A DNA stretch of 64,000 nucleotides from Pseudomonadota bacterium (GTDB lineage: Bacteria; Desulfobacterota; Desulfobacteria; Desulfobacterales; RPRI01), in contig JBDRRF010000024.1 of assembly GCA_043825875.1 (NCBI GenBank), positions 24,759 to 88,758 on the forward strand, written 5' to 3'. The position numbers were made by a program, and so were the translations under genes. Of the stretch, positions 53,158 to 60,790 are shown one piece after another; position 1 is the first letter of the stretch; each line of letters opens with the position of its first letter. Below the pieces are notes generated by a model. The model saw only the letters and a list, made by a program, of their open reading frames with translations, did not search any database and was not told the DNA's origin.

Positions 53158-54078
53158 ATGGGAAATAAAATAAGAACCACAATGTTGCTTGCCGTATTGA
53201 CGGCATTTATTGTCTGGGTGGGTCAGATAATGGGCGGCACCCATGGGATGTTTATAGCGCTTATTATTGCAGCAGCAATGAATTTTGTCAGCTACTGGTA
53301 TTCTGATAAGATTGTATTAAAGATGTATAAGGCAAGAGAAGTTACTCCAAATGATGTGCCGCTTGTTCATGAAATAGTGAAAAAGCTTACGGTTCGCGCC
53401 GGACTGCCGATGCCGAAGGTTTATTTAATACCCGAAGAATCACCAAATGCTTTTGCCACAGGAAGAGATCCCGAACATGCGGTTGTTGCTGTTACAAAAG
53501 GCCTTGTTAATCTGATGAACAAAGAAGAGCTTGAAGGAGTTATTGCTCATGAACTTGCTCACATAAAAAACAGAGATATCCTGATAGGCTCTATTGCCGC
53601 AACGCTTGCAGGCGCTATTATGGTGCTTGCAAATATGGCACGGTTTGCGGCCATATTCGGTGGCCATAGAAGTGATGACAGCGTTAGCGGCGGCGGTATG
53701 GTTTCGCTTATACTCATGTCTATCGTGGCTCCTTTTGCAGCTATAATTATACAGATGGCCATATCACGTTCCGGAGAATTTTCGGCAGATTCCACCGGAG
53801 CTATTATTGCCGGCAATTCAAAAGGACTTGCCGGCGCTCTTGAAAAGCTTGGTTCCTATTCCAAAAAACTTCCCATGGATGCAAATCCTTCAACAGCCCA
53901 TATGTTTATTGTAAATCCGCTATCAGGAAAAAGCCTGATATATCTTTTCTCAACTCACCCTCCGCTTGAAGAAAGAATCCAGCGCCTTGGTGGAATCAGC
54001 ACTGAAAAAAGCAGCAATGGTTTGGAAGCTAACAGGGGGGAAGAAGCTGCTAAATCTTTCTGGAAAAATCTTTCTTAG
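53158..54078 (+). CDS. htpX: Zinc metalloprotease HtpX
   Basis: PNAFATG, HELAH, FSTHPP. Confidence 0.95.
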   Translation: MGNKIRTTMLLAVLTAFIVWVGQIMGGTHGMFIALIIAAAMNFVSYWYSDKIVLKMYKAREVTPNDVPLVHEIVKKLTVRAGLPMPKVYLIPEESPNAFATGRDPEHAVVAVTKGLVNLMNKEELEGVIAHELAHIKNRDILIGSIAATLAGAIMVLANMARFAAIFGGHRSDDSVSGGGMVSLILMSIVAPFAAIIIQMAISRSGEFSADSTGAIIAGNSKGLAGALEKLGSYSKKLPMDANPSTAHMFIVNPLSGKSLIYLFSTHPPLEERIQRLGGISTEKSSNGLEANRGEEAAKSFWKNLS

Positions 54079-54086
54079 ATTTAATA

Positions 54087-54229
54087 GTGTCCGCCCAGAA
54101 ATGGTAGATTGCGGTTCAGATCAAGGCCGCAGTGTTTTTGAAAACGCAGGCGTAATGGGCTTACATCGAGTATTTCAAAAACGCGAGAACGCAGATATGG
54201 GTCGTAAGATGCCGTTTATGGACGGACAC
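54087..54229 (+). mobile_element. MITE-like element, family B
   Basis: TIR GTGTCCGCCCAGAAATGG / CCGTTTATGGACGGACAC (15 of 18); 143 bp; internal motifs shared with family A. Confidence 0.7.
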
Positions 54230-54479
54230 AAAATAAAAATGTGGCATATTCTGATTATTGTTTTATAATGGCAATATGATCTTAAAAAATGTTATAATGT
54301 GCTCAATTATTTTCTTGACACTATATTCATGATGCTTTAGAGATCCCAAAAAATATAGTTGCGATTATTAATAGTTTCGGTTAGTTTATTAAACTTAAAC
54401 AAGGGTTGTTTTCGAAATTACCTGGTATAAATTTTTCTTAAATGTATCAAATCCGGTCTGATCGTTCGGAGTTTATAAA

Positions 54480-54770
54480 ATGCAGTATTATGCATGTTTT
54501 AAAACAAGAATTAATAATACAGGGAAATGCGTTAAAATCCCTTGCGCCACCACTTTATCATCATGCGACAGGCAATCCGAAACGAATGATAATGATGCTG
54601 ACGAACCCCCGTCGCTGCTTTTTGGATCAGACTTTATTATCAGGTTAAAGCAACTTATTAAAGATTATTTTCACTCTGTCGAAAAGACTGAATACCTACC
54701 GACATTTTTTCCTTCACAAAAACATTTATCTGTAAAGAGAAAGGTTTTATTATTTTTACCATATAGTTAA
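54480..54770 (+). CDS. Small protein homologous to the KamA N-terminal extension (DEPPSL peptide)
   Basis: GGAG RBS 8 nt upstream; aligns with aa 1-80 of the next gene with synonymous codon differences. Confidence 0.7.
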   Translation: MQYYACFKTRINNTGKCVKIPCATTLSSCDRQSETNDNDADEPPSLLFGSDFIIRLKQLIKDYFHSVEKTEYLPTFFPSQKHLSVKRKVLLFLPYS

Positions 54771-54880
54771 AAAAGACCTTTAGAAGTTTAGCTGGCTGTA
54801 TTTATAATATAAAATCACTTTAGAATAATAAGCGCAAATAAAAATCACCGGTTTTAAAAATTAAAAAAGGAGTAAATGAA

Positions 54881-56233
54881 ATGCAAAATAACGCTCGTTC
54901 TATAAGACGTGGCGGAGTGTCCAGGAAAGCAATGAAAATTCCCGACTGCCCGGCAATTCAATCCGAAAGCAAAAACTCCGACTTAAATGAGGTTGATGAG
55001 CCTCCGTCGCTGTCTCTTGCTTCAGATAGTTCCCTGCATACCGTTTGCTCAGAAGAACTGCTTCCTGTTCGTCCGGTCAAACGCCATCCATCACGCATCT
55101 TAAGAAAACAATTTATTTTCCAGGCAACACCTGCCGAATGGAACGACTGGAAGTGGCAACTTAAAAACCGAATCCAAAATTTTGATACTCTTTCAACAAT
55201 CTTAACACTTTCACCGGAAGAGACAGAAGCTGTTAAATCAAATGCTGATTCTTTGCCTCTATCCATTACTCCTTATTATGCCAGTCTTCTCGACAAGACT
55301 GATCCTATGCACCCGCTGCGACGTGCCGTAGTTCCCGTTAAAGCTGAACTTTGCAAGTCTTTCGGAGAAGCCGAAGATCCTCTGGGAGAAGATGCCGACA
55401 GTCCTGTTTGCGGTATTGTGCATCGTTATCCTGATCGCGTATTGTTTTTAGTAACAGATTTTTGTTCCACCAACTGCCGCTACTGCACAAGATCAAGAAT
55501 GGTAGGCCGGTCATCGGTATCTCATGGCGGTGTGGCAAACTGGGAAAAAGCGCTTGGTTATATTGAAGCAAATAAGGATATAAGAGATGTATTGATTTCC
55601 GGTGGCGATCCTCTTACCCTTAGTGATGATGCTCTGGAATGGCTCCTTTCACGTCTTTGCCGTATTCCACATCTGGATATTGTACGCATCGGGACAAAGG
55701 CTCCTGTGGTTCTGCCCCAGCGCATTACTACCAGATTAGTCAGAATGCTTAAGCGCTATCACCCTTTATGGATTAATATTCATTTCATGCATCCTGAGGA
55801 AGTTACGCCTGAAACCAGTACTGCCTGTAACAGGCTTGCCGATGCCGGAATACCGCTTGGAAGCCAGACTGTTCTTCTTAAAGGGATAAACGATGATGTG
55901 GATACCATGAAAAGTCTTTACCACCAACTTCTTAAAATCCGGGTGCGCCCCTACTATCTGTACCAGTGCGATCCTATTGTCGGCTCCTCACACTTTAAGA
56001 CACCTGTTGAAAAAGGGCTTGAAATCATAAAAGGTCTCAGAGGGCACACATCCGGTATGGCAGTGCCGAATTTTGTTATTGACGCTCCCGGAGGCGGAGG
56101 TAAAATCCCACTTCTGCCGGAATATGTTTTAGGACGCTATGGGGACAATATCTTGCTGAAAAACTATGAAGATCTTATCTTCCGCTATCCTGACTCATCG
56201 ATAAAAAGACGTTTTGAGGAAGGAATCTATTAA
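54881..56233 (+). CDS. kamA: Lysine 2,3-aminomutase (KamA-family radical SAM/PLP) with ~80-aa N-terminal extension
   Basis: WNDWKWQL, HRYPDR, CSTNCRYCTR, SGGDPL, YQCD, DAPGGGGK. Confidence 0.93.
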   Translation: MQNNARSIRRGGVSRKAMKIPDCPAIQSESKNSDLNEVDEPPSLSLASDSSLHTVCSEELLPVRPVKRHPSRILRKQFIFQATPAEWNDWKWQLKNRIQNFDTLSTILTLSPEETEAVKSNADSLPLSITPYYASLLDKTDPMHPLRRAVVPVKAELCKSFGEAEDPLGEDADSPVCGIVHRYPDRVLFLVTDFCSTNCRYCTRSRMVGRSSVSHGGVANWEKALGYIEANKDIRDVLISGGDPLTLSDDALEWLLSRLCRIPHLDIVRIGTKAPVVLPQRITTRLVRMLKRYHPLWINIHFMHPEEVTPETSTACNRLADAGIPLGSQTVLLKGINDDVDTMKSLYHQLLKIRVRPYYLYQCDPIVGSSHFKTPVEKGLEIIKGLRGHTSGMAVPNFVIDAPGGGGKIPLLPEYVLGRYGDNILLKNYEDLIFRYPDSSIKRRFEEGIY

Positions 56234-57240
56234 TGATCGCAGGCATTACATACGATCTGCGCAATGAATATATTGCCATGGGTTTTAGCGAGGAAGATGC
56301 TGCCGAATTCGACAGTGAAGAAACCATAGATGCTATTGAAAAAGCCCTGTCCGATCTTGGTTATAAAACCGAAAGGGTAGGGCATATCAAAAACCTTGTT
56401 AAACAGCTTTGCGAAGGCAGAAGATGGGATATTGTATTTAATATAGCGGAAGGCTGCTTTGGAATGGGAAGAGAGGCGCAGGTTCCGGCAATTCTGGATG
56501 CCTATAAAATTGCATACACCTTTTCCGATCCATTAGTTTTAAGTCTTACCCTTAACAAGGCTGTTACAAAACTTATTGTAAAAAATCTGGGAATAGCGAC
56601 TCCTGATTTTGCCCTTGTAGAAAAACCGGCGGATGTTGACGCTGTCTCTCTTCCTTTTCCCCTGTTTGTCAAACCCGTTGCGGAAGGAACAGGTAAAGGA
56701 ATAAGCGCCGCGTCAAAAACAACAAATAAGGATGAACTGTATAAAGTATGCCTAAATCTTCTTGAAAGGTTTAAGCAACCTGTATTAGTTGAAACATATC
56801 TTCCCGGACGCGAATTTACCGTAGGAATTATAGGTACAGGTGAAAAGGCAAAGGTTGCCGGTGTTATGGAAGTTTTTCTTAATGAGCATGCTGAAGGAGA
56901 TTCATATTCATATATCAACAAGAAGAAATATGAAGAGGTTGTGACTTATCGTCTGGCAGATGATAAAATGGCCCGCGATGCTGCAAAAGCTGCTCTTGAT
57001 GCCTGGATAGGGCTTAAATGTCTTGATGCCGGGAGGATAGATATAAGATCGGATGAAAACGGGTGCCCGAATTTTATAGAGGTTAACCCTCTTGCGGGAC
57101 TTCATCCCGTACATTCCGATCTTCCCATACTGTGCAGGTTGTCCGGTGTCAGTTATAAAGAACTTATTGATGAAATAATAAAATCCGCAATAAGCAGGTA
57201 TCCCGCTTTAATAAAGGAAAACCAGGATAATCTTTTATGA
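56233..57240 (+). CDS. Ddl-like ATP-grasp ligase 1
   Basis: FVKPVAEGTGKG, ETYLPGREFTV, RIDIR, EVNPLAG; TAATG coupling to kamA; lacks the canonical HG..GEDG motif. Confidence 0.88.
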   Translation: MIAGITYDLRNEYIAMGFSEEDAAEFDSEETIDAIEKALSDLGYKTERVGHIKNLVKQLCEGRRWDIVFNIAEGCFGMGREAQVPAILDAYKIAYTFSDPLVLSLTLNKAVTKLIVKNLGIATPDFALVEKPADVDAVSLPFPLFVKPVAEGTGKGISAASKTTNKDELYKVCLNLLERFKQPVLVETYLPGREFTVGIIGTGEKAKVAGVMEVFLNEHAEGDSYSYINKKKYEEVVTYRLADDKMARDAAKAALDAWIGLKCLDAGRIDIRSDENGCPNFIEVNPLAGLHPVHSDLPILCRLSGVSYKELIDEIIKSAISRYPALIKENQDNLL

Positions 57241-58217
57241 AAAAATCAGTCGGCATCTTACATGCCGATATTTCGGATAATGCAGATGAAGATGAAAAGG
57301 ATGTGCTCATACAATTGGAAGCTGTTTCAAATGCACTGGCACATCTTGGGTTTGATCCTGTTTCCGTTAAATTCGGTTTAAATCTTGAAAATGCAGTTAA
57401 CCTGCTTCAAAAACTTAAGCCTTCCTTTGTATTCAATCTTGTGGAATCCGTAAATGGCTGCGGGAGCCTGATTCATCTTGCTCCTTCATTATTAGACTAC
57501 CTTAAAATTCCTTATACCGGGTCTAAGACACAAGCCATGTTTTTGACTTCAAACAAGCTTTTAGGAAAAGGCTATCTTGAAGCGCATGGCATAAGTACTC
57601 CCAAAGCTTATTGCCTTTCTTCCTTAAAAAGAGAAACCACTGTTAACGGCCGGTATATAATAAAATCCGTATGGGAACATGCCTCAATTGGTATGGAACA
57701 GGATTCGGTTGTTGATGTAAAAAGCATTTCCGAACTTGTTTCAAGGCTTGAAAGTGTTAAAACCAATATGGGTGGAGAATTTTTTTGCGAACAATATATA
57801 GACGGGCGTGAATTTAATATTGCTTTGCTTTCCGGCCCTAATGGAGTTGAAGTTCTTCCACCGGCAGAAATTCTTTTTACAGATTATCCTGAAGATAAAC
57901 ATAAAATAGTTGATTACAGCGCAAAATGGCAAACGGATTCATTTGAGTATATTAATACAAAAAGAACTTTTAATTTCAGATCTGATGATATGAATCTGAT
58001 TGAATCTCTGAAAATAATTTCAAAACAATGCTGGGACTTGTTTGAACTTAAGGGATATGCAAGGGTAGATTTCAGAGTTGATGAATCCGGCATGCCATGG
58101 GTTCTTGAAATTAATGCCAATCCCTGCATCTCACCTGACAGCGGATTTGCAGCCGCATCTAAGATGATCGGACTTGATTTTACCGATGTTATCAAAAGAA
58201 TAATTGAAGATATCTGA
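57237..58217 (+). CDS. Ddl-like ATP-grasp ligase 2
   Basis: KSVWEHASIG, EQYIDGREFN, YARVDFR, EINANP; ATGA overlap. Confidence 0.88.
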   Translation: MKKSVGILHADISDNADEDEKDVLIQLEAVSNALAHLGFDPVSVKFGLNLENAVNLLQKLKPSFVFNLVESVNGCGSLIHLAPSLLDYLKIPYTGSKTQAMFLTSNKLLGKGYLEAHGISTPKAYCLSSLKRETTVNGRYIIKSVWEHASIGMEQDSVVDVKSISELVSRLESVKTNMGGEFFCEQYIDGREFNIALLSGPNGVEVLPPAEILFTDYPEDKHKIVDYSAKWQTDSFEYINTKRTFNFRSDDMNLIESLKIISKQCWDLFELKGYARVDFRVDESGMPWVLEINANPCISPDSGFAAASKMIGLDFTDVIKRIIEDI

Positions 58218-58292
58218 TTGTTGTTCCATCCGGGAAATAAAAAAAACCTCGCCTTTAATAGAAGAATTTAGTATGGAAATAGTTTCATAAAA

Positions 58293-58387
58293 AAGGGTTC
58301 AAGGGGTCGAGGATTCGAGGGTTCAAGTGAAAAGAGGATAAGGTGCAGTACAAAACAAACACTTGACCCCTGGAACCCTTGAATCCT
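58293..58387. repeat. Octamer tandem array with inverted counterpart
   Basis: AAGGGTTC AAGGGGTC GAGGATTC GAGGGTTC AAGTG ... CACTTGACCCCT GGAACCCT TGAATCCT. Confidence 0.75.
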
Positions 58388-58390
58388 ACT

Positions 58391-58418
58391 AACGTCATCG
58401 GCTTTATCCGATGACGTT
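58391..58418. repeat. Perfect hairpin before the GNAT RBS
   Basis: AACGTCATCGG-N6-CCGATGACGTT. Confidence 0.6.
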
Positions 58419-58435
58419 TACATGGAGACCATAAT

Positions 58436-58951
58436 TTGACAAGCAAAGAAAAAAAAATTAACTCCATTAATAATTTAACTTTTCGCGAAAACCCAATAGA
58501 AGACGACATAGAAAAAGTCGGGGCAATAGTTGAACAAACGGGCTTTTTCTCGGAAAGCGAGATTGAAATTGCAAAAGAGCTTGTAGGAGAAAGACTTTTA
58601 AAAGGCATTCAAAGCGGGTATTATTTTTTATTTGCAGAAAGCAAAAAAAAATTTGCAGGTTATACCTGCTTTGGGCCTGTTGCCGGAACCCTGTCAAGTT
58701 TTGATCTTTACTGGATTGTTATTGATAAAAGTTTTCAGGGGCAGGGAATAGGTAAACTTCTTAACACAATGACTGAAGATATTATCAGAAAAATGGGCGG
58801 ATCAAGAATTTATGCCGAAACATCTTCAAGACCGCAGTATGAACCAACCCGTGCTTTTTATCATCATGCAGGATATAAGGAGGCTGCATATCTGGAAGAC
58901 TTTTATGCTCCCAATGATGGAAAGATAATTTTTGTTAAAAGGATTGATTGA
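58436..58951 (+). CDS. GNAT acetyltransferase
   Basis: LYWIVI...QGQGIGK, AETSSRPQY, RAFY..AGY; GGAG RBS. Confidence 0.9.
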   Translation: MTSKEKKINSINNLTFRENPIEDDIEKVGAIVEQTGFFSESEIEIAKELVGERLLKGIQSGYYFLFAESKKKFAGYTCFGPVAGTLSSFDLYWIVIDKSFQGQGIGKLLNTMTEDIIRKMGGSRIYAETSSRPQYEPTRAFYHHAGYKEAAYLEDFYAPNDGKIIFVKRID

Positions 58952-58952
58952 T

Positions 58953-60377
58953 TTGCCGGATTTAAATAAAAACAAAATTCCCGAAAAAATAAAAAAAATA
59001 CATTTAATTGCTGTGTGCGGAACCGGAATGGGAGCTCTTGCCTGCATGCTTAAAGACTTGGGCTATGAGATTACAGGTTCTGATGATAAGATATATCCTC
59101 CTATGAGCGATTTTCTTGCAGAAAAAGGAATTGCTCTTATGCAAGGTTTTAGTGCTGATAATCTTTCTTACAATCCTGATCTTGTTGTTGTAGGAAATGC
59201 GGTTAGAAGAGAAAATCCCGAAGCAGTCAGGATGGCAGAAAAGGGTTTATGTTACTGTTCCATGCCCCAGGCCTTAAACCGGTTTGCAGCAGCAGGTAAA
59301 AACAGCCTCATTGTTATAGGTACTCATGGAAAAACAACAACAACATCCATACTGGCATGGGTGCTTTACAAAGCAGGCCTTGATCCATCCTTTATGATAG
59401 GTGGCATTACAAAAAATTTTAACAGCAATTACAGGATAGGGAAAGGGAAGTATTTTGTTGTGGAAGGCGATGAATATGACACTGCTTTTTTCGACAAAGG
59501 GCCAAAGTTCCTTCATTTTGACCCGTTAATAGCAATCCTTACAAGCATAGAATTTGATCATGCCGATATATTCAGGGATCTTGATCATGTGAAAGAAACT
59601 TTCGGCAAAATGATAGAAAAGATGTCTCCTGATAGCAGTCTTATAGCGTTTGATACTGATAACAATATCAACTCCCTTTTAAGCAAAAGTAATTGCAGAG
59701 TAGAGAAGTACGGGAAAAACAGCGCTTCCGATTGGAAGCTTGGTTCATTTAAAATTGAATCGCCCTGGACGTTTTTTGAAGTAATGAAAAAGAGAAAAGC
59801 ATTCAAAACATTTAAGACAAAACTTGTAGGTGAGCATAATTTGCAAAACGCTCTTTCTGTTATTGCTGCTGCCGATAGTCTCAATATCCCGGTTGATACA
59901 ATACATGAAGCTCTTGAAACATTTGAGGGAATAAAAAGAAGGCAGGAAGTACGCGGAGAAAGAAAAGGCATTACCGTAATGGATGATTTTGCCCATCATC
60001 CAACTGCCGTAAAAGAAACTGTAAAAGCCCTAAAACCTTTTTACCCTAAAGGGCGGCTGATTGCTGTATTTGAGCCGAGAACAAATTCAAGCATGCGAAA
60101 GGTTTTTCAGGATGTATACCCACTGTCATTTGATGATGCTGATATCATTTGTATAAGCAAACCACCTCTTCTTGAAAAGATACCTTTTGATGAAAGGTTT
60201 TCTTCTGAAAAACTGGTAGAGGATCTTAAGACAAAGGGAAAAGACGCTTATTTTTTCAACAACACGCAATCCATAATTGATTTTCTTGTAAAAACAGCAA
60301 AATCAGGCGATCTTATCCTTATAATGTCAAACGGAGGCTTTGAAAATGTTCACGAAAGACTATTGGCTGCTCTTTAA
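58953..60377 (+). CDS. mpl: UDP-MurNAc:L-Ala-gamma-D-Glu-mDAP ligase (murein peptide ligase)
   Basis: AVCGTGMG, GTHGKTTT, EGDEYDTAFFDK, DDFAHHPTAV, MSNGGF. Start uncertain (TTG at 58932, 58944 or 58953). Confidence 0.92.
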   Translation: MPDLNKNKIPEKIKKIHLIAVCGTGMGALACMLKDLGYEITGSDDKIYPPMSDFLAEKGIALMQGFSADNLSYNPDLVVVGNAVRRENPEAVRMAEKGLCYCSMPQALNRFAAAGKNSLIVIGTHGKTTTTSILAWVLYKAGLDPSFMIGGITKNFNSNYRIGKGKYFVVEGDEYDTAFFDKGPKFLHFDPLIAILTSIEFDHADIFRDLDHVKETFGKMIEKMSPDSSLIAFDTDNNINSLLSKSNCRVEKYGKNSASDWKLGSFKIESPWTFFEVMKKRKAFKTFKTKLVGEHNLQNALSVIAAADSLNIPVDTIHEALETFEGIKRRQEVRGERKGITVMDDFAHHPTAVKETVKALKPFYPKGRLIAVFEPRTNSSMRKVFQDVYPLSFDDADIICISKPPLLEKIPFDERFSSEKLVEDLKTKGKDAYFFNNTQSIIDFLVKTAKSGDLILIMSNGGFENVHERLLAAL

Positions 60378-60389
60378 GGGATAAAGTGA

Positions 60390-60560
60390 ATGAAAATAAA
60401 TAAGGAAGGGACATATATTCTTTGCCCTAAAAAGGGAAACCCTAAAAAACATACTTTTGTATGCCAGCAATGCCGTTATCGTAATAGTTGCAAGTCATAC
60501 CAGAGATATCTTCAACCCGAATTGCCTTTTCGTTCATATCGAACAGTGAAAAGGGATTAA
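60390..60560 (+). CDS. Small Cys-rich protein (56 aa, below ORF-track cutoff)
   Basis: MKINKEGTYILCPKKGNPKKHTFVCQQCRYRNSCKSYQRYLQPELPFRSYRTVKRD; starts 13 bp after the mpl stop with AAGGGA upstream. Confidence 0.6.
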   Translation: MKINKEGTYILCPKKGNPKKHTFVCQQCRYRNSCKSYQRYLQPELPFRSYRTVKRD

Positions 60561-60790
60561 TCACATTCAATCATAATACCGCAGCCATCACACCGATAGA
60601 TGGTTTTGGCATTTTCTGAAGACTTTACTTCTTCAAAATCATAATATTTTTCACCCCGTGCCTCAAAACATTCCGGGCAGTATCCATCCTCAAGTTCATC
60701 AGCTTTTAGCGTCAGATGACAGTGAACGCATCTGATCCGGTTACTTTTTTGCGGCAGCAGTACAAGTATATTATGTTTGCATTCAGACAT
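60557..60790 (-). CDS. Small multi-CxxC (zinc-ribbon-like) protein
   Basis: CKH, CVHC, CPEC and CDGC in 77 aa. Confidence 0.7.
   Translation of the reverse strand: MSECKHNILVLLPQKSNRIRCVHCHLTLKADELEDGYCPECFEARGEKYYDFEEVKSSENAKTIYRCDGCGIMIECD

Follow-up and report, generated by a model that had tools for sequence, protein, structure and literature searches.

Why should the gene for a lysine 2,3-aminomutase be preceded by a small open reading frame (ORF) that resembles its own beginning? The question is raised by a 64,000-nucleotide stretch of contig JBDRRF010000024.1 (positions 24,759 to 88,758, forward strand) from a Desulfobacterales bacterium (assembly GCA_043825875.1); this whole stretch is referred to as the window, and coordinates are given within it. 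A first-pass annotation of the window had noticed that a 96-residue ORF upstream of kamA resembles KamA residues 1-80, a DEPPS motif included, and had offered three models for the encoded peptide: (a) a substrate akin to the peptides that are made on the ribosome and modified after translation (RiPPs), (b) an amino-acid carrier analogous to LysW, and (c) a Glu-Pro-Pro (EPP) ribosome-pause sensor linked to elongation factor P (EF-P). We find that the small ORF is, on sequence grounds, clearly a partial tandem duplication of the 5' end of kamA, ribosome-binding site (RBS) included, and we tentatively favor, while retaining real doubt, a modified form of the third model, in which the ORF is a translated leader and an ancient pause element occurs in it a second time. 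The two copies are laid out as follows.

54468..54471, + strand: Shine-Dalgarno sequence GGAG of the small ORF, 8 nt 5' of its ATG
54480..54770, + strand: small ORF, 96 aa, ATG start, paralog of KamA residues 1-80, read here as a putative leader peptide gene
54600..54614, + strand: small-ORF motif D41-E42-P43-P44-S45, codons GAC GAA CCC CCG TCG, first proline codon of the form CCY
54869..54872, + strand: Shine-Dalgarno sequence GGAG of kamA; AAAAAGGAG is invariant across 14 loci of the genus
54881..56233, + strand: kamA, lysine-2,3-aminomutase-family radical S-adenosylmethionine (SAM) enzyme, 450 aa, Pfam Radical_SAM and LAM_C
54881..55096, + strand: KamA N-terminal extension, about residues 1-72, predicted to be disordered, parent copy of the duplicated segment
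54995..55009, + strand: KamA motif D39-E40-P41-P42-S43, codons GAT GAG CCT CCG TCG

The resemblance of the small ORF to KamA residues 1-80 was borne out at both the protein and the DNA level. BLASTP of the small ORF against KamA gave E = 0.002 (single comparison) with 24/78 identities between ORF residues 16-92 and KamA residues 16-80. The Smith-Waterman score against the KamA N-terminus was 74, a value reached in 0/2000 shuffles (mean 24.5, SD 4.5), and the score against whole KamA was reached in 0/1000 shuffles. The gap-free alignment of the first 21 residues reported by the first-pass annotation stands in part, there being few identities beyond MQ..A and K..KIP and the BLASTP alignment starting at residue 16. 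The DNA alignment extends 5' of both ATGs through the Shine-Dalgarno sequence (CCGGT...GGAGT..AT.AAATGCA), and the duplicated unit therefore includes the RBS, making the small ORF a tandem duplication of the kamA 5' end. The GGAG of the small ORF, which had been recognized as an RBS of its own, lies in a context, GGAGTTTAT(A/G)(A/G)A, that recurs in loci L004, L005, and L014. Homology stops at KamA residue ∼80, where the canonical core begins (FRK.FF...WNDW region), so the ORF does end about where the core starts, and shared residues use differing codons, as had also been noted (GAC GAA CCC in the ORF, GAT GAG CCT in KamA). An AT-rich spacer of 110 nt separates the small ORF from kamA in the window. 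Pfam and NCBIfam assigned the small-ORF peptide to no family, a search of the ESM Atlas returned no usable match, and its predicted structure has no confident fold (predicted local distance difference test score, pLDDT, 60.6; predicted template modeling score, pTM, 0.24).

We surveyed 16 genomes of the same genus, 13 of which carry a full-length KamA ortholog bearing the extension; the other three comprise one genome that is 63% complete and has no match, and two with a shorter paralog only. An intact upstream ORF with the motif is present in 11/13 of these genomes, or 12/14 counting the window, each time directly 5' of kamA and on the same strand. In the remaining two (L006 and L016) the motif-bearing part of the ORF is deleted, leaving a tail remnant, and the operon is kept. 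A profile of the 12 peptides searched against a collection of 5.8 billion proteins identified 52 stand-alone relatives of 92 to 161 aa, all unnamed or "hypothetical" and, where a source is named, from Desulfobacterales or Desulfobacteraceae bins or "uncultured Desulfobacterium sp."; when the search was widened to longer or fused forms, two 173-aa members and no fusions came up, which is weak evidence. In an alignment of 43 members of this family (nine were dropped arbitrarily against redundancy) N38, D41, E42, P43, and P44 are invariant, with F23, S25, Q32, N38, and L56 also conserved around the motif, and the invariant N, D, E, P, and P persist at 24-70% overall identity among the 52 members.

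The genus splits into three clades, and the pattern of selection differs among them. In the window's clade (clade A; L003, L004, and L005) the ratio of nonsynonymous to synonymous substitution rates (dN/dS) is 0.14 to 0.22 in the motif half of the small ORF and 0.29 to 0.40 in the rest, compared with 0.69 to 1.29 in the two wrong frames; third positions are the most variable and indel lengths are without exception divisible by 3. In the central part of the clade B and C ORFs, indels of 77, 4, 8, and 2 nt break the frame and codon periodicity is lacking, and the last ∼20 codons vary mainly at synonymous sites. In L008-L013 and L015, members of these clades, the frame of the ORF has a single stop over 355 to 523 nt, where the other frames have 5 to 14, and that stop falls one base before the kamA start (...AGC ATG TGA G ATG); in L007 the ORF ends 97 nt 5' of kamA. 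Across all comparisons dN/dS is 0.25 to 0.86 for the small ORF, 0.14 to 0.47 for the KamA extension, and 0.06 to 0.14 for the KamA core. The proposal that selection acts at the protein level and that the ORF is not a neutral relic is thus upheld by the clade A data, with dN/dS below the wrong-frame controls and indels in multiples of 3, and the outcome named beforehand as speaking against it (an ORF absent or frameshifted in relatives, with dN/dS near 1) was not seen, the ORF being intact in 12/14 loci and its dN/dS 0.14 to 0.40 in clade A. As is expected of a leader peptide gene, the ORF is short, co-oriented, and next to kamA, the evidence of its translation being evolutionary. Judged from this pattern of substitution, the small ORF is translated and under selection, yet dispensable in some species.

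The motif itself reaches far beyond the genus. An N-terminal extension bearing acidic-(E/K/D)PP(S/G/D) was found in every KamA ortholog from ten further families of the order, whereas six loci with more distant KamA paralogs have neither extension nor motif, and ATP-grasp ligase genes lie downstream in 22/24 extension-bearing loci versus 0/6 paralog loci. In the window, the genes that follow kamA are these.

56233..57240, + strand: AG1, a Ddl-like ATP-grasp ligase, its start overlapping the kamA stop
57237..58217, + strand: AG2, a second Ddl-like ATP-grasp ligase (Pfam, NCBIfam, and PDB profile matches)
58436..58951, + strand: GNAT acetyltransferase of the cluster, with a close solved homolog (PDB ID: 2R7H)

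A scan of one-genome-per-species contigs anchored on AG1 found at least 595 relatives, of which the best 80 loci were analyzed; these come from Thermodesulfobacteriota, Syntrophales, Planctomycetota, Spirochaetota, Bacteroidales, Ignavibacteriales, Acidobacteriota, and others. KamA adjoins AG1 in 72/80 loci, usually with AG2 and the GNAT next. The extension is readable in 68 of the 80, and EPP is present in 63/68 (46 matches to a strict pattern and 17 of the form xEPP[SGDE] judged by eye), in agreement with the expectation of the first-pass annotation that (D/E)EPP(S/G) would be conserved in KamA orthologs. Among 66 KamA sequences, conservation at E40, P41, and P42 is complete or at least 90%, which equals that of the Fe-S cysteines and the lysine of the pyridoxal phosphate (PLP) site. 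Conservation is compact, with acidic residues at -3 and -2, then E-P-P-S/G, and background beyond +3; the Glu before the prolines is Lys in 2/57 and Asp in 1/57 sequences. The start Met stands exactly 11 residues ahead of the Glu in 26/55 sequences, with start codons picked by a Shine-Dalgarno heuristic, and a variable linker of 50 to 100 residues follows the motif in every KamA lineage. Stand-alone copies, which the first-pass annotation had proposed to look for, were found in the genus (12/14 loci); among the 80 loci they occur at genus-level loci only, with none in the other 77. As read from this distribution, the in-frame motif is ancient, while stand-alone copies are limited to a single genus of Desulfobacterales.

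Codon usage at the motif was analyzed in 61 cross-phylum kamA genes (gene GC 35-69%), with expectations taken from each locus's own proline usage. The first proline codon is CCT in 47, CCC in 13, and CCG in 1 (CCY in 60/61), compared with expected numbers of 11.9 CCT, 20.4 CCC, 22.8 CCG, and 5.8 CCA (32.3 CCY), and 0/100000 simulations reached the observed CCY or CCT counts. As a control, 1199 other Pro-Pro pairs from the same loci, drawn from open frames of at least 150 codons, some perhaps not genes, begin with CCY in 37% of cases, and the 95 pairs preceded by Asp or Glu do so in 46%; motif and control differ with Fisher p = 5e-24, a value that overstates independence since the sequences are phylogenetically related and the statistics are not tree-aware. 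CCU or CCC with a C after it thus opens the proline pair in 60/61 genes, and around half of these have it near codon 13. The third base of this codon is U in 44/58 genes (11.1 expected) and that of the Ser/Gly codon after the two prolines is U in 36/58 (12.4 expected). The second proline codon is near expectation except for CCA (13 vs 5.7), and the codons neighboring the motif are near background usage; such free variation at adjacent synonymous sites argues against simple inheritance and for saturation having been reached. The Ser codon alternates between AGY and TCG among families and the acidic codons vary, and the AGY/TCG switching implies that the amino acids of the motif are selected as well. 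Within the genus, CCY occupies the first position in 12/12 stand-alone copies and 14/14 KamA copies.

In E. coli, according to PMC8129111, Pro-Pro pairs avoid CCC and CCU as their first codon, these two codons are slower for diproline synthesis, CCA is tRNA-limited and used for tuning pausing, and codon choice at the PPP site of CadC sets CadC copy number; residues upstream of the prolines modulate stalling, as described in PMC4176338. For the GGG isoacceptor of tRNA-Pro, frame maintenance is reported to require EF-P plus 1-methylguanosine at tRNA position 37 (m1G37). The motif combines CCY-C and a share of CCA with U-ending codons that are read by wobble, has acidic residues upstream, and lies close to the start codon, a signature to be expected of a pause under selection, so that consecutive proline codons are conserved, as in proline-dependent leaders, in a stalling-prone context of both amino acids and codons. 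By analogy with these systems, the codon pattern would constitute a slow, slippage-prone, EF-P-dependent context.

As a separate observation, the Pro-Ser codons CCG TCG, at 54607-54614 and 55004-55009 of the window and in L004-L016, are nearly fixed in both copies within the genus: CCG is found in 11/12 peptides and 13/14 KamA genes, and TCG, the rarest Ser codon of the window (0.11), in 10/10 peptide Ser and 12/14 KamA genes, other families using AGY. This near-fixation could reflect gene conversion or selection at the level of decoding.

RNA structure does not account for the codon constraint, because the local minimum free energy (MFE), compared with synonymous recodings in the 61 genes, has a z averaging -0.08 (Wilcoxon p = 0.55) and CCC replaces CCU freely. 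The idea that CCUCC pairs, in the manner of an anti-Shine-Dalgarno sequence, with the kamA RBS or with GAGGAG codons was rejected: there is no general excess of structure, 13 genes use CCC, which breaks CCUCC, and several genes lack a GGAGG RBS. A programmed +1 or -1 frameshift to a defined product was likewise set aside, the shifted frames ending after 2 to 134 and 1 to 200 codons, respectively, without conservation. The sole strongly structured group is a Smithella-like subgroup (L064, L077, L080, L082, L083, L087, and L088; z -3.2 to -4.5), in which GAG GAG GAG and GAA CCU CCU can form an AGGAGG/CCUCCU hairpin of about -25 kcal/mol, compared with about -12 recoded. A weak terminator-like hairpin with a T-run at 54599-54624 (TGACG-AACCCC-CGTCG, then CTGCTTTTTG) covers the DEPPSLLF codons of the small ORF in the window; it relies on the window-specific GAC and CCC codons and is not kept in L004 or L005. 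An Rfam search over 53900-55300 (E ≤ 1) gave only a chance-level match to RalA, at 21.4 bits versus a gathering score of 170. Around the small ORF, the window contains the following further elements.

53158-54078, upstream of the hairpin below: htpX-like peptidase gene, Pfam Peptidase_M48
54108..54133, + strand: terminator-like hairpin, 9-pair stem then GTTTTTGAAA, after the htpX-like M48 peptidase gene, probably marking the end of the preceding transcription unit
54241..54269, + strand: promoter-like GTGGCA-17-TATAAT, 10/12, 5' of the small ORF, consensus match only
54779..54808, + strand: promoter-like TTTAGA-18-TATAAT, 10/12, in the spacer between the ORF and kamA, consensus match only

The region has 8 promoter-like sites versus 4.0 ± 2.0 in shuffles, so any single one of them is weak evidence.

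How might these observations be brought together? As we read it, the ancestor of one Desulfobacterales genus underwent a tandem duplication of the kamA RBS, the N-terminal extension, and the first core residues, and the duplicate retained the defining element of the extension, acidic-Glu-Pro-Pro-(Ser/Gly) with a first proline codon CCY followed by C. This element would act as a programmed translational slow-down, in which a Pro-Pro bond in a strong amino-acid context is joined to a CC[U/C]-C codon pair that may be slow, prone to +1 slippage, and read by tRNA-Pro(GGG), and output would depend on the capacity of the cell for Pro-Pro translation (EF-P, m1G37 on tRNA-Pro). Most lineages carry the element in frame at about codon 13 of kamA; in the genus a second copy in the upstream leader ORF would make the operon pass the checkpoint twice. 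In two of the three clades a single base separates the leader stop from the kamA ATG, which suggests translational coupling. The constraint on CCY and on the next codon favors a pause, because a binding motif would not need synonymous constraint, and the loss of the ORF in L006 and L016 with the operon kept suits an accessory regulator. Also in favor are the place of the ORF ahead of kamA, the compact conservation with its frequent 11-residue distance from the start Met, and the predicted disorder of a tail that does not dock on the core. The homology, the selection on the ORF, its restriction to the genus, the cross-phylum motif, and the codon constraint are observed; that the constraint may reflect pausing, that pausing may regulate expression, and in which direction it may do so, we infer from the sequences.

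A number of points weigh against a pause leader. Owing to indels of 77 and 105 nt, the clades differ in how far the motif lies from kamA, and the ORF of the window's clade ends 110 nt 5' of kamA with promoter-like sites between, so that coupling is not evident in that clade. The post-motif half is under purifying selection there (dN/dS 0.29 to 0.40), which a pure pause leader would not need, because later residues cannot influence the pause. We found no conserved RNA switch (attenuator, terminator/antiterminator, or RBS masking) by which a leader pause would be read out, although coupling at the TGA-G-ATG junction of clades B and C could stand in for one, and the linker of 50 to 100 residues kept in every KamA lineage is not explained by a pause alone. 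The codon after the two prolines in the genus is TCG, which is not U-ending, and the small ORF of the window uses CCC. The kinetic data behind a pause interpretation are from E. coli, and the relatedness of the sequences, mentioned above, tempers the codon statistics. Some of these points fit better with a trans-acting small protein, notably the non-adjacent ORF of the window's clade that is selected beyond its motif, and the long linker in every KamA is more natural for a tethered binding motif. We therefore keep as a serious, if somewhat less probable, rival the possibility that EPP is a short linear motif tethering KamA to a ligase, to the GNAT, or to an outside partner, and that the free peptide is a decoy, adaptor, or substrate, which would compete with the KamA tail, regulate it, or be modified in its stead (a weaker version of the first two models). 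A disordered tail with a variable linker in all lineages is the classic architecture of a tethered motif; the extension co-occurs with the ligases, as described; the whole 96 aa, the post-motif part included, are under purifying selection in clade A; the residues flanking the motif (F23, S25, Q32, N38, and L56) are conserved in the peptide family; and the window ORF has its own RBS and lies 110 nt, with promoter-like sites, ahead of kamA. A binding motif, however, leaves unexplained both the third-base constraint on CCY and the next codon and the constant start-codon spacing seen in about half of the lineages. AG1 and AG2 resemble small-molecule D-Ala-D-Ala ligases and not protein- or peptide-modifying ATP-grasp enzymes, the Glu is not an obligatory carboxylate acceptor, because Lys replaces it in 2/57 sequences and Asp in 1/57, no confident fold is predicted for the peptide, and the peptide is missing from 2/14 genus genomes and from every locus outside the genus (77 of 80 fetched). 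The roles of pause leader and trans-acting peptide are not mutually exclusive and could coexist.

The small ORF might also be a slowly decaying, functionless relic, conserved through recent ancestry, occasional gene conversion by kamA, or overlapping regulatory DNA. Its origin as a partial tandem duplication including the RBS, overall dN/dS values up to 0.86 in some pairs, the frame-breaking indels and missing codon periodicity of clades B and C, two independent deletions of the motif part (L006 and L016), and the nearly identical CCG TCG of the two genus copies, which could reflect gene conversion, would all be compatible with decay. We nonetheless regard a relic as very improbable: dN/dS is well under the wrong-frame controls, the indels of clade A are solely multiples of 3, the frame has stayed open over 355 to 523 nt in clades B and C where other frames have 5 to 14 stops, the last 20 codons of those clades change mainly at synonymous sites, and 52 members keep N, D, E, P, and P at only 24-70% overall identity. 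The peptide copies moreover share C..RQSEQND.DEPPSLF, while their own KamA copies have GDRQT.QNE.DEPPSLS; gene conversion is not homogenizing the copies, because the peptides share features unlike their own KamA.

The substrate and carrier models of the first-pass annotation did not hold up. A RiPP-like substrate is disfavored by the Ddl-like character of the ligases, the absence of an acceptor pattern, the loss of the peptide in 2/14 loci, and its absence outside the genus; a LysW-like carrier by the same ligases, the lack of a conserved acidic C-terminus, and again the absence of a free peptide outside the genus. Microviridin-type clusters encode the precursor MdnA, the ATP-grasp enzymes MdnB and MdnC, and the GNAT MdnD, and Thr/Ser/Lys and Asp/Glu residues of the core are macrocyclized. 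On paper our locus is similar, with a peptide gene, two ATP-grasp genes, and a GNAT, but there is no such Thr/Ser/Lys-Asp/Glu core, the ligases are of the D-Ala-D-Ala type, and the free peptide occurs in one genus only. We accordingly rejected a graspetide precursor. The family has no conserved Lys/Thr/Ser acceptor pattern, its only invariant acidic residues, D41 and E42, lie beside the prolines, and no MdnB/MdnC-type macrocyclase was found among the PDB profile matches of the Ddl-like AG1 and AG2. Nor is a precursor present wherever the enzymes are: it is confined to the genus and lost in L006 and L016, and the in-cis KamA copy is everywhere. LysW is a zinc-ribbon protein that presents the Glu at its C-terminus, and its partner LysX is RimK-like. 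Our peptide shares with LysW a small, acidic character and a place beside ATP-grasp ligases in an amino-acid pathway, but its motif is internal, neither C-terminus nor Cys is conserved, and the ligases are Ddl-like. A LysW identity was rejected since the C-termini differ among clades, there is no conserved Cys pattern and no confident fold, and the partner ligases are not of LysX/RimK type in Pfam, NCBIfam, or PDB. In borosins, as here, a motif occurs both fused to the enzyme and free.

Parallels to the leader that we favor are found in translational control. In the MgtL and MgtP leaders of the Salmonella mgt operons and at the PPP site of CadC, as we propose here, consecutive proline codons make expression depend on Pro-Pro translation. 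They differ from the element described here, which is in frame in an enzyme across phyla and duplicated into an upstream ORF in one genus, has no attenuator or RBS-masking structure that we could find, is recognized from sequences, and sits in a leader of some length (92-173 aa) whose conservation extends in part past the proline site. SecM, TnaC, and SpeFL are nascent-chain arrest peptides; in such systems, as in ours, an upstream leader is translated and conservation lies in or just before the stall site, but their stall sites are near the leader end and act through defined RNA rearrangements nearby, whereas our motif lies 50 to 130 codons ahead of the leader stop with variable spacing. MifM is also treated as an arrest peptide in PMC4423224, and regulation of MgtL through translation of proline codons is the subject of a title cited in PMC6335274. 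CadC offers the further parallel that synonymous proline codon choice tunes the effect (PMC8129111). The CC[C/U]-[C/U] sequons that are prone to +1 slippage, where m1G37 of tRNA-Pro and EF-P come into play, resemble the CCU/CCC-C found near the gene start in 60/61 genes; E. coli avoids CCC and CCU as first codons of Pro-Pro pairs, by the same source, whereas here they are positively conserved, and the lack of a conserved shifted-frame product means that this is not a classical programmed frameshift.

The specific form of the third model holds that the EPP site senses beta-lysylation of EF-P and forms a feedback loop with the beta-lysine made by this KamA. Of that model, the pause element gains support from the codon constraint, while the link to beta-lysyl-EF-P is only loosely supported, and we think such a loop quite unlikely. 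The window genome does encode EpmA above curated cut-offs (331-336 bits vs 286.9) and one EF-P; its three KamA-family proteins all score under the EpmB cut-off, the cluster KamA coming closest to EpmB genome-wide (259.8 bits vs 245.9 and 219.3 for two shorter paralogs). In a sample of 201 genomes of the phylum, EpmA is above cut-off in 18/29 with a strong AG1 ortholog versus 56/172 others, a tally counted by hand, with a 450-bit threshold chosen after bimodal scores were seen and without phylogenetic correction. Because 11/29 cluster-bearing genomes of this one-phylum sample have no EpmA above cut-off, and because the cluster is also present in further phyla, the element cannot depend on beta-lysyl-EF-P in general. 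Canonical KamA makes (S)-beta-lysine, whereas EpmA uses the (R) form made by EpmB, a mismatch in stereochemistry that speaks against the loop, as does the size of the shorter KamA paralogs (351 and 381 aa), which is that expected of EpmB. A pause in kamA that lowers KamA when EF-P is unmodified would also be positive feedback, which is not obviously useful. On contigs C103, C18, C47, and C49 of genome G000 (L113, L118, L120, and L121), none of the three KamA-family genes adjoins efp or epmA. A broader speculation, equally much a long shot, is that an ancient in-frame checkpoint gates the radical-SAM beta-lysine pathway (kamA, two Ddl-like ligases, and GNAT) on the Pro-Pro translation machinery, be it EF-P, probably beta-lysylated by EpmA without a detected dedicated EpmB, and/or SAM-dependent m1G37 on tRNA-Pro, and so would tie the capacity for translation to the supply of beta-lysine or SAM; by duplication, the genus would have made the checkpoint a separate leader gene.

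The enzymes of the cluster were examined individually. KamA scores 366.9 bits against TIGR00238 (KamA family; cut-off 199.2) and 494.8 bits against the AblA equivalog model, under its cut-off of 525.4, so the window KamA belongs to a distinct subfamily. C195, C199, C202, K408, D364, and D401 are invariant in 66 sequences; we take C195/C199/C202 to be the radical SAM CxxxCxxC motif, K408 the PLP-binding Lys, and D364 and D401 the residues that bind the epsilon-amino group of lysine. With CxxxCxxC, the Lys, two Asp, and the LAM_C domain, KamA has the features of a lysine 2,3-aminomutase, its product being a prediction. The AlphaFold2 model has a confident core and pLDDT ∼40 for residues 1-65, and docking of the tail on its own core was not predicted in this monomer model. 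AG1 is 55-63% identical across phyla. AG1 and AG2 match Pfam Dala_Dala_lig_C and, in NCBIfam, Ddl models only; their PDB profile matches (E ≤ 1e-5) are to Ddl/VanA, L-amino-acid ligase, and PurD, with no RimK, LysX, or microviridin-type matches in Pfam, NCBIfam, or PDB. The GNAT matches PDB ID: 2R7H with E = 4e-57, deposited as "Putative D-alanine N-acetyltransferase of GNAT family". Our literature search, which did not extend to subscription journals, found no functional paper on 2R7H, its sole mention being in a paper of unrelated title, and nothing in print on the kamA-AG1-AG2-GNAT cluster or the motif. Complex prediction of AG1, AG2, and GNAT with peptide residues 18-62 gave scores of 0.01 and 0.00 (mark 0.32; no controls), which count neither toward binding nor against it.

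In five loci (L060, L069, L091, L104, and L108) AG2 and GNAT are apparently fused in one ORF of 512 to 549 aa, which suggests that the second ligase and the acetyltransferase act together; in the window a gap of 218 nt (58218-58435) separates the two, and elsewhere the genes often abut or fuse. AG1-like genes without a KamA nearby occur in L055, L059, L066, L098, and L099, also without an AG2 or GNAT match, and two Pirellulales loci (L069 and L081) have AG1, AG2, and GNAT and no KamA within 5-kb flanks. Downstream in the window, an Mpl-type murein peptide ligase gene (58932-60377; TIGR01081, 411.7 bits, cut-off 388.7) overlaps the GNAT end by 20 nt and, given this overlap, may be co-transcribed with the cluster in the window genome. 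Beyond it lie two convergent small ORFs, 60390-60560 (+) and 60557-60790 (-), encoding CxxC-rich, zinc-ribbon-like proteins of 56 and 77 aa, one with a weak DmmA-like_C match (E = 0.0047, below cut-off).

Control of translation by proline codons is a known type of element; what would be new here is its setting in a beta-lysine cluster and its visible evolutionary origin. For annotation, 52 or more "hypothetical proteins" would be paralogs of the kamA leader and not RiPP precursors. If the leader reading is right, this locus would be a rare case in which a coding N-terminus can be directly seen to have given rise to a regulatory leader peptide, and the duplication specific to the genus would show how an in-frame N-terminal regulatory segment becomes a free-standing leader ORF. 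A widespread cluster without an assigned function, with at least 595 matches across Thermodesulfobacteriota, Planctomycetota, Spirochaetota, Bacteroidota, Acidobacteriota, and others, would gain a conserved regulatory feature at the start of its first gene. Cross-phylum synonymous conservation at a single Pro-Pro site would then be an unusually clean natural case of codon-level pause tuning, which has so far been characterized mainly in E. coli and Salmonella.

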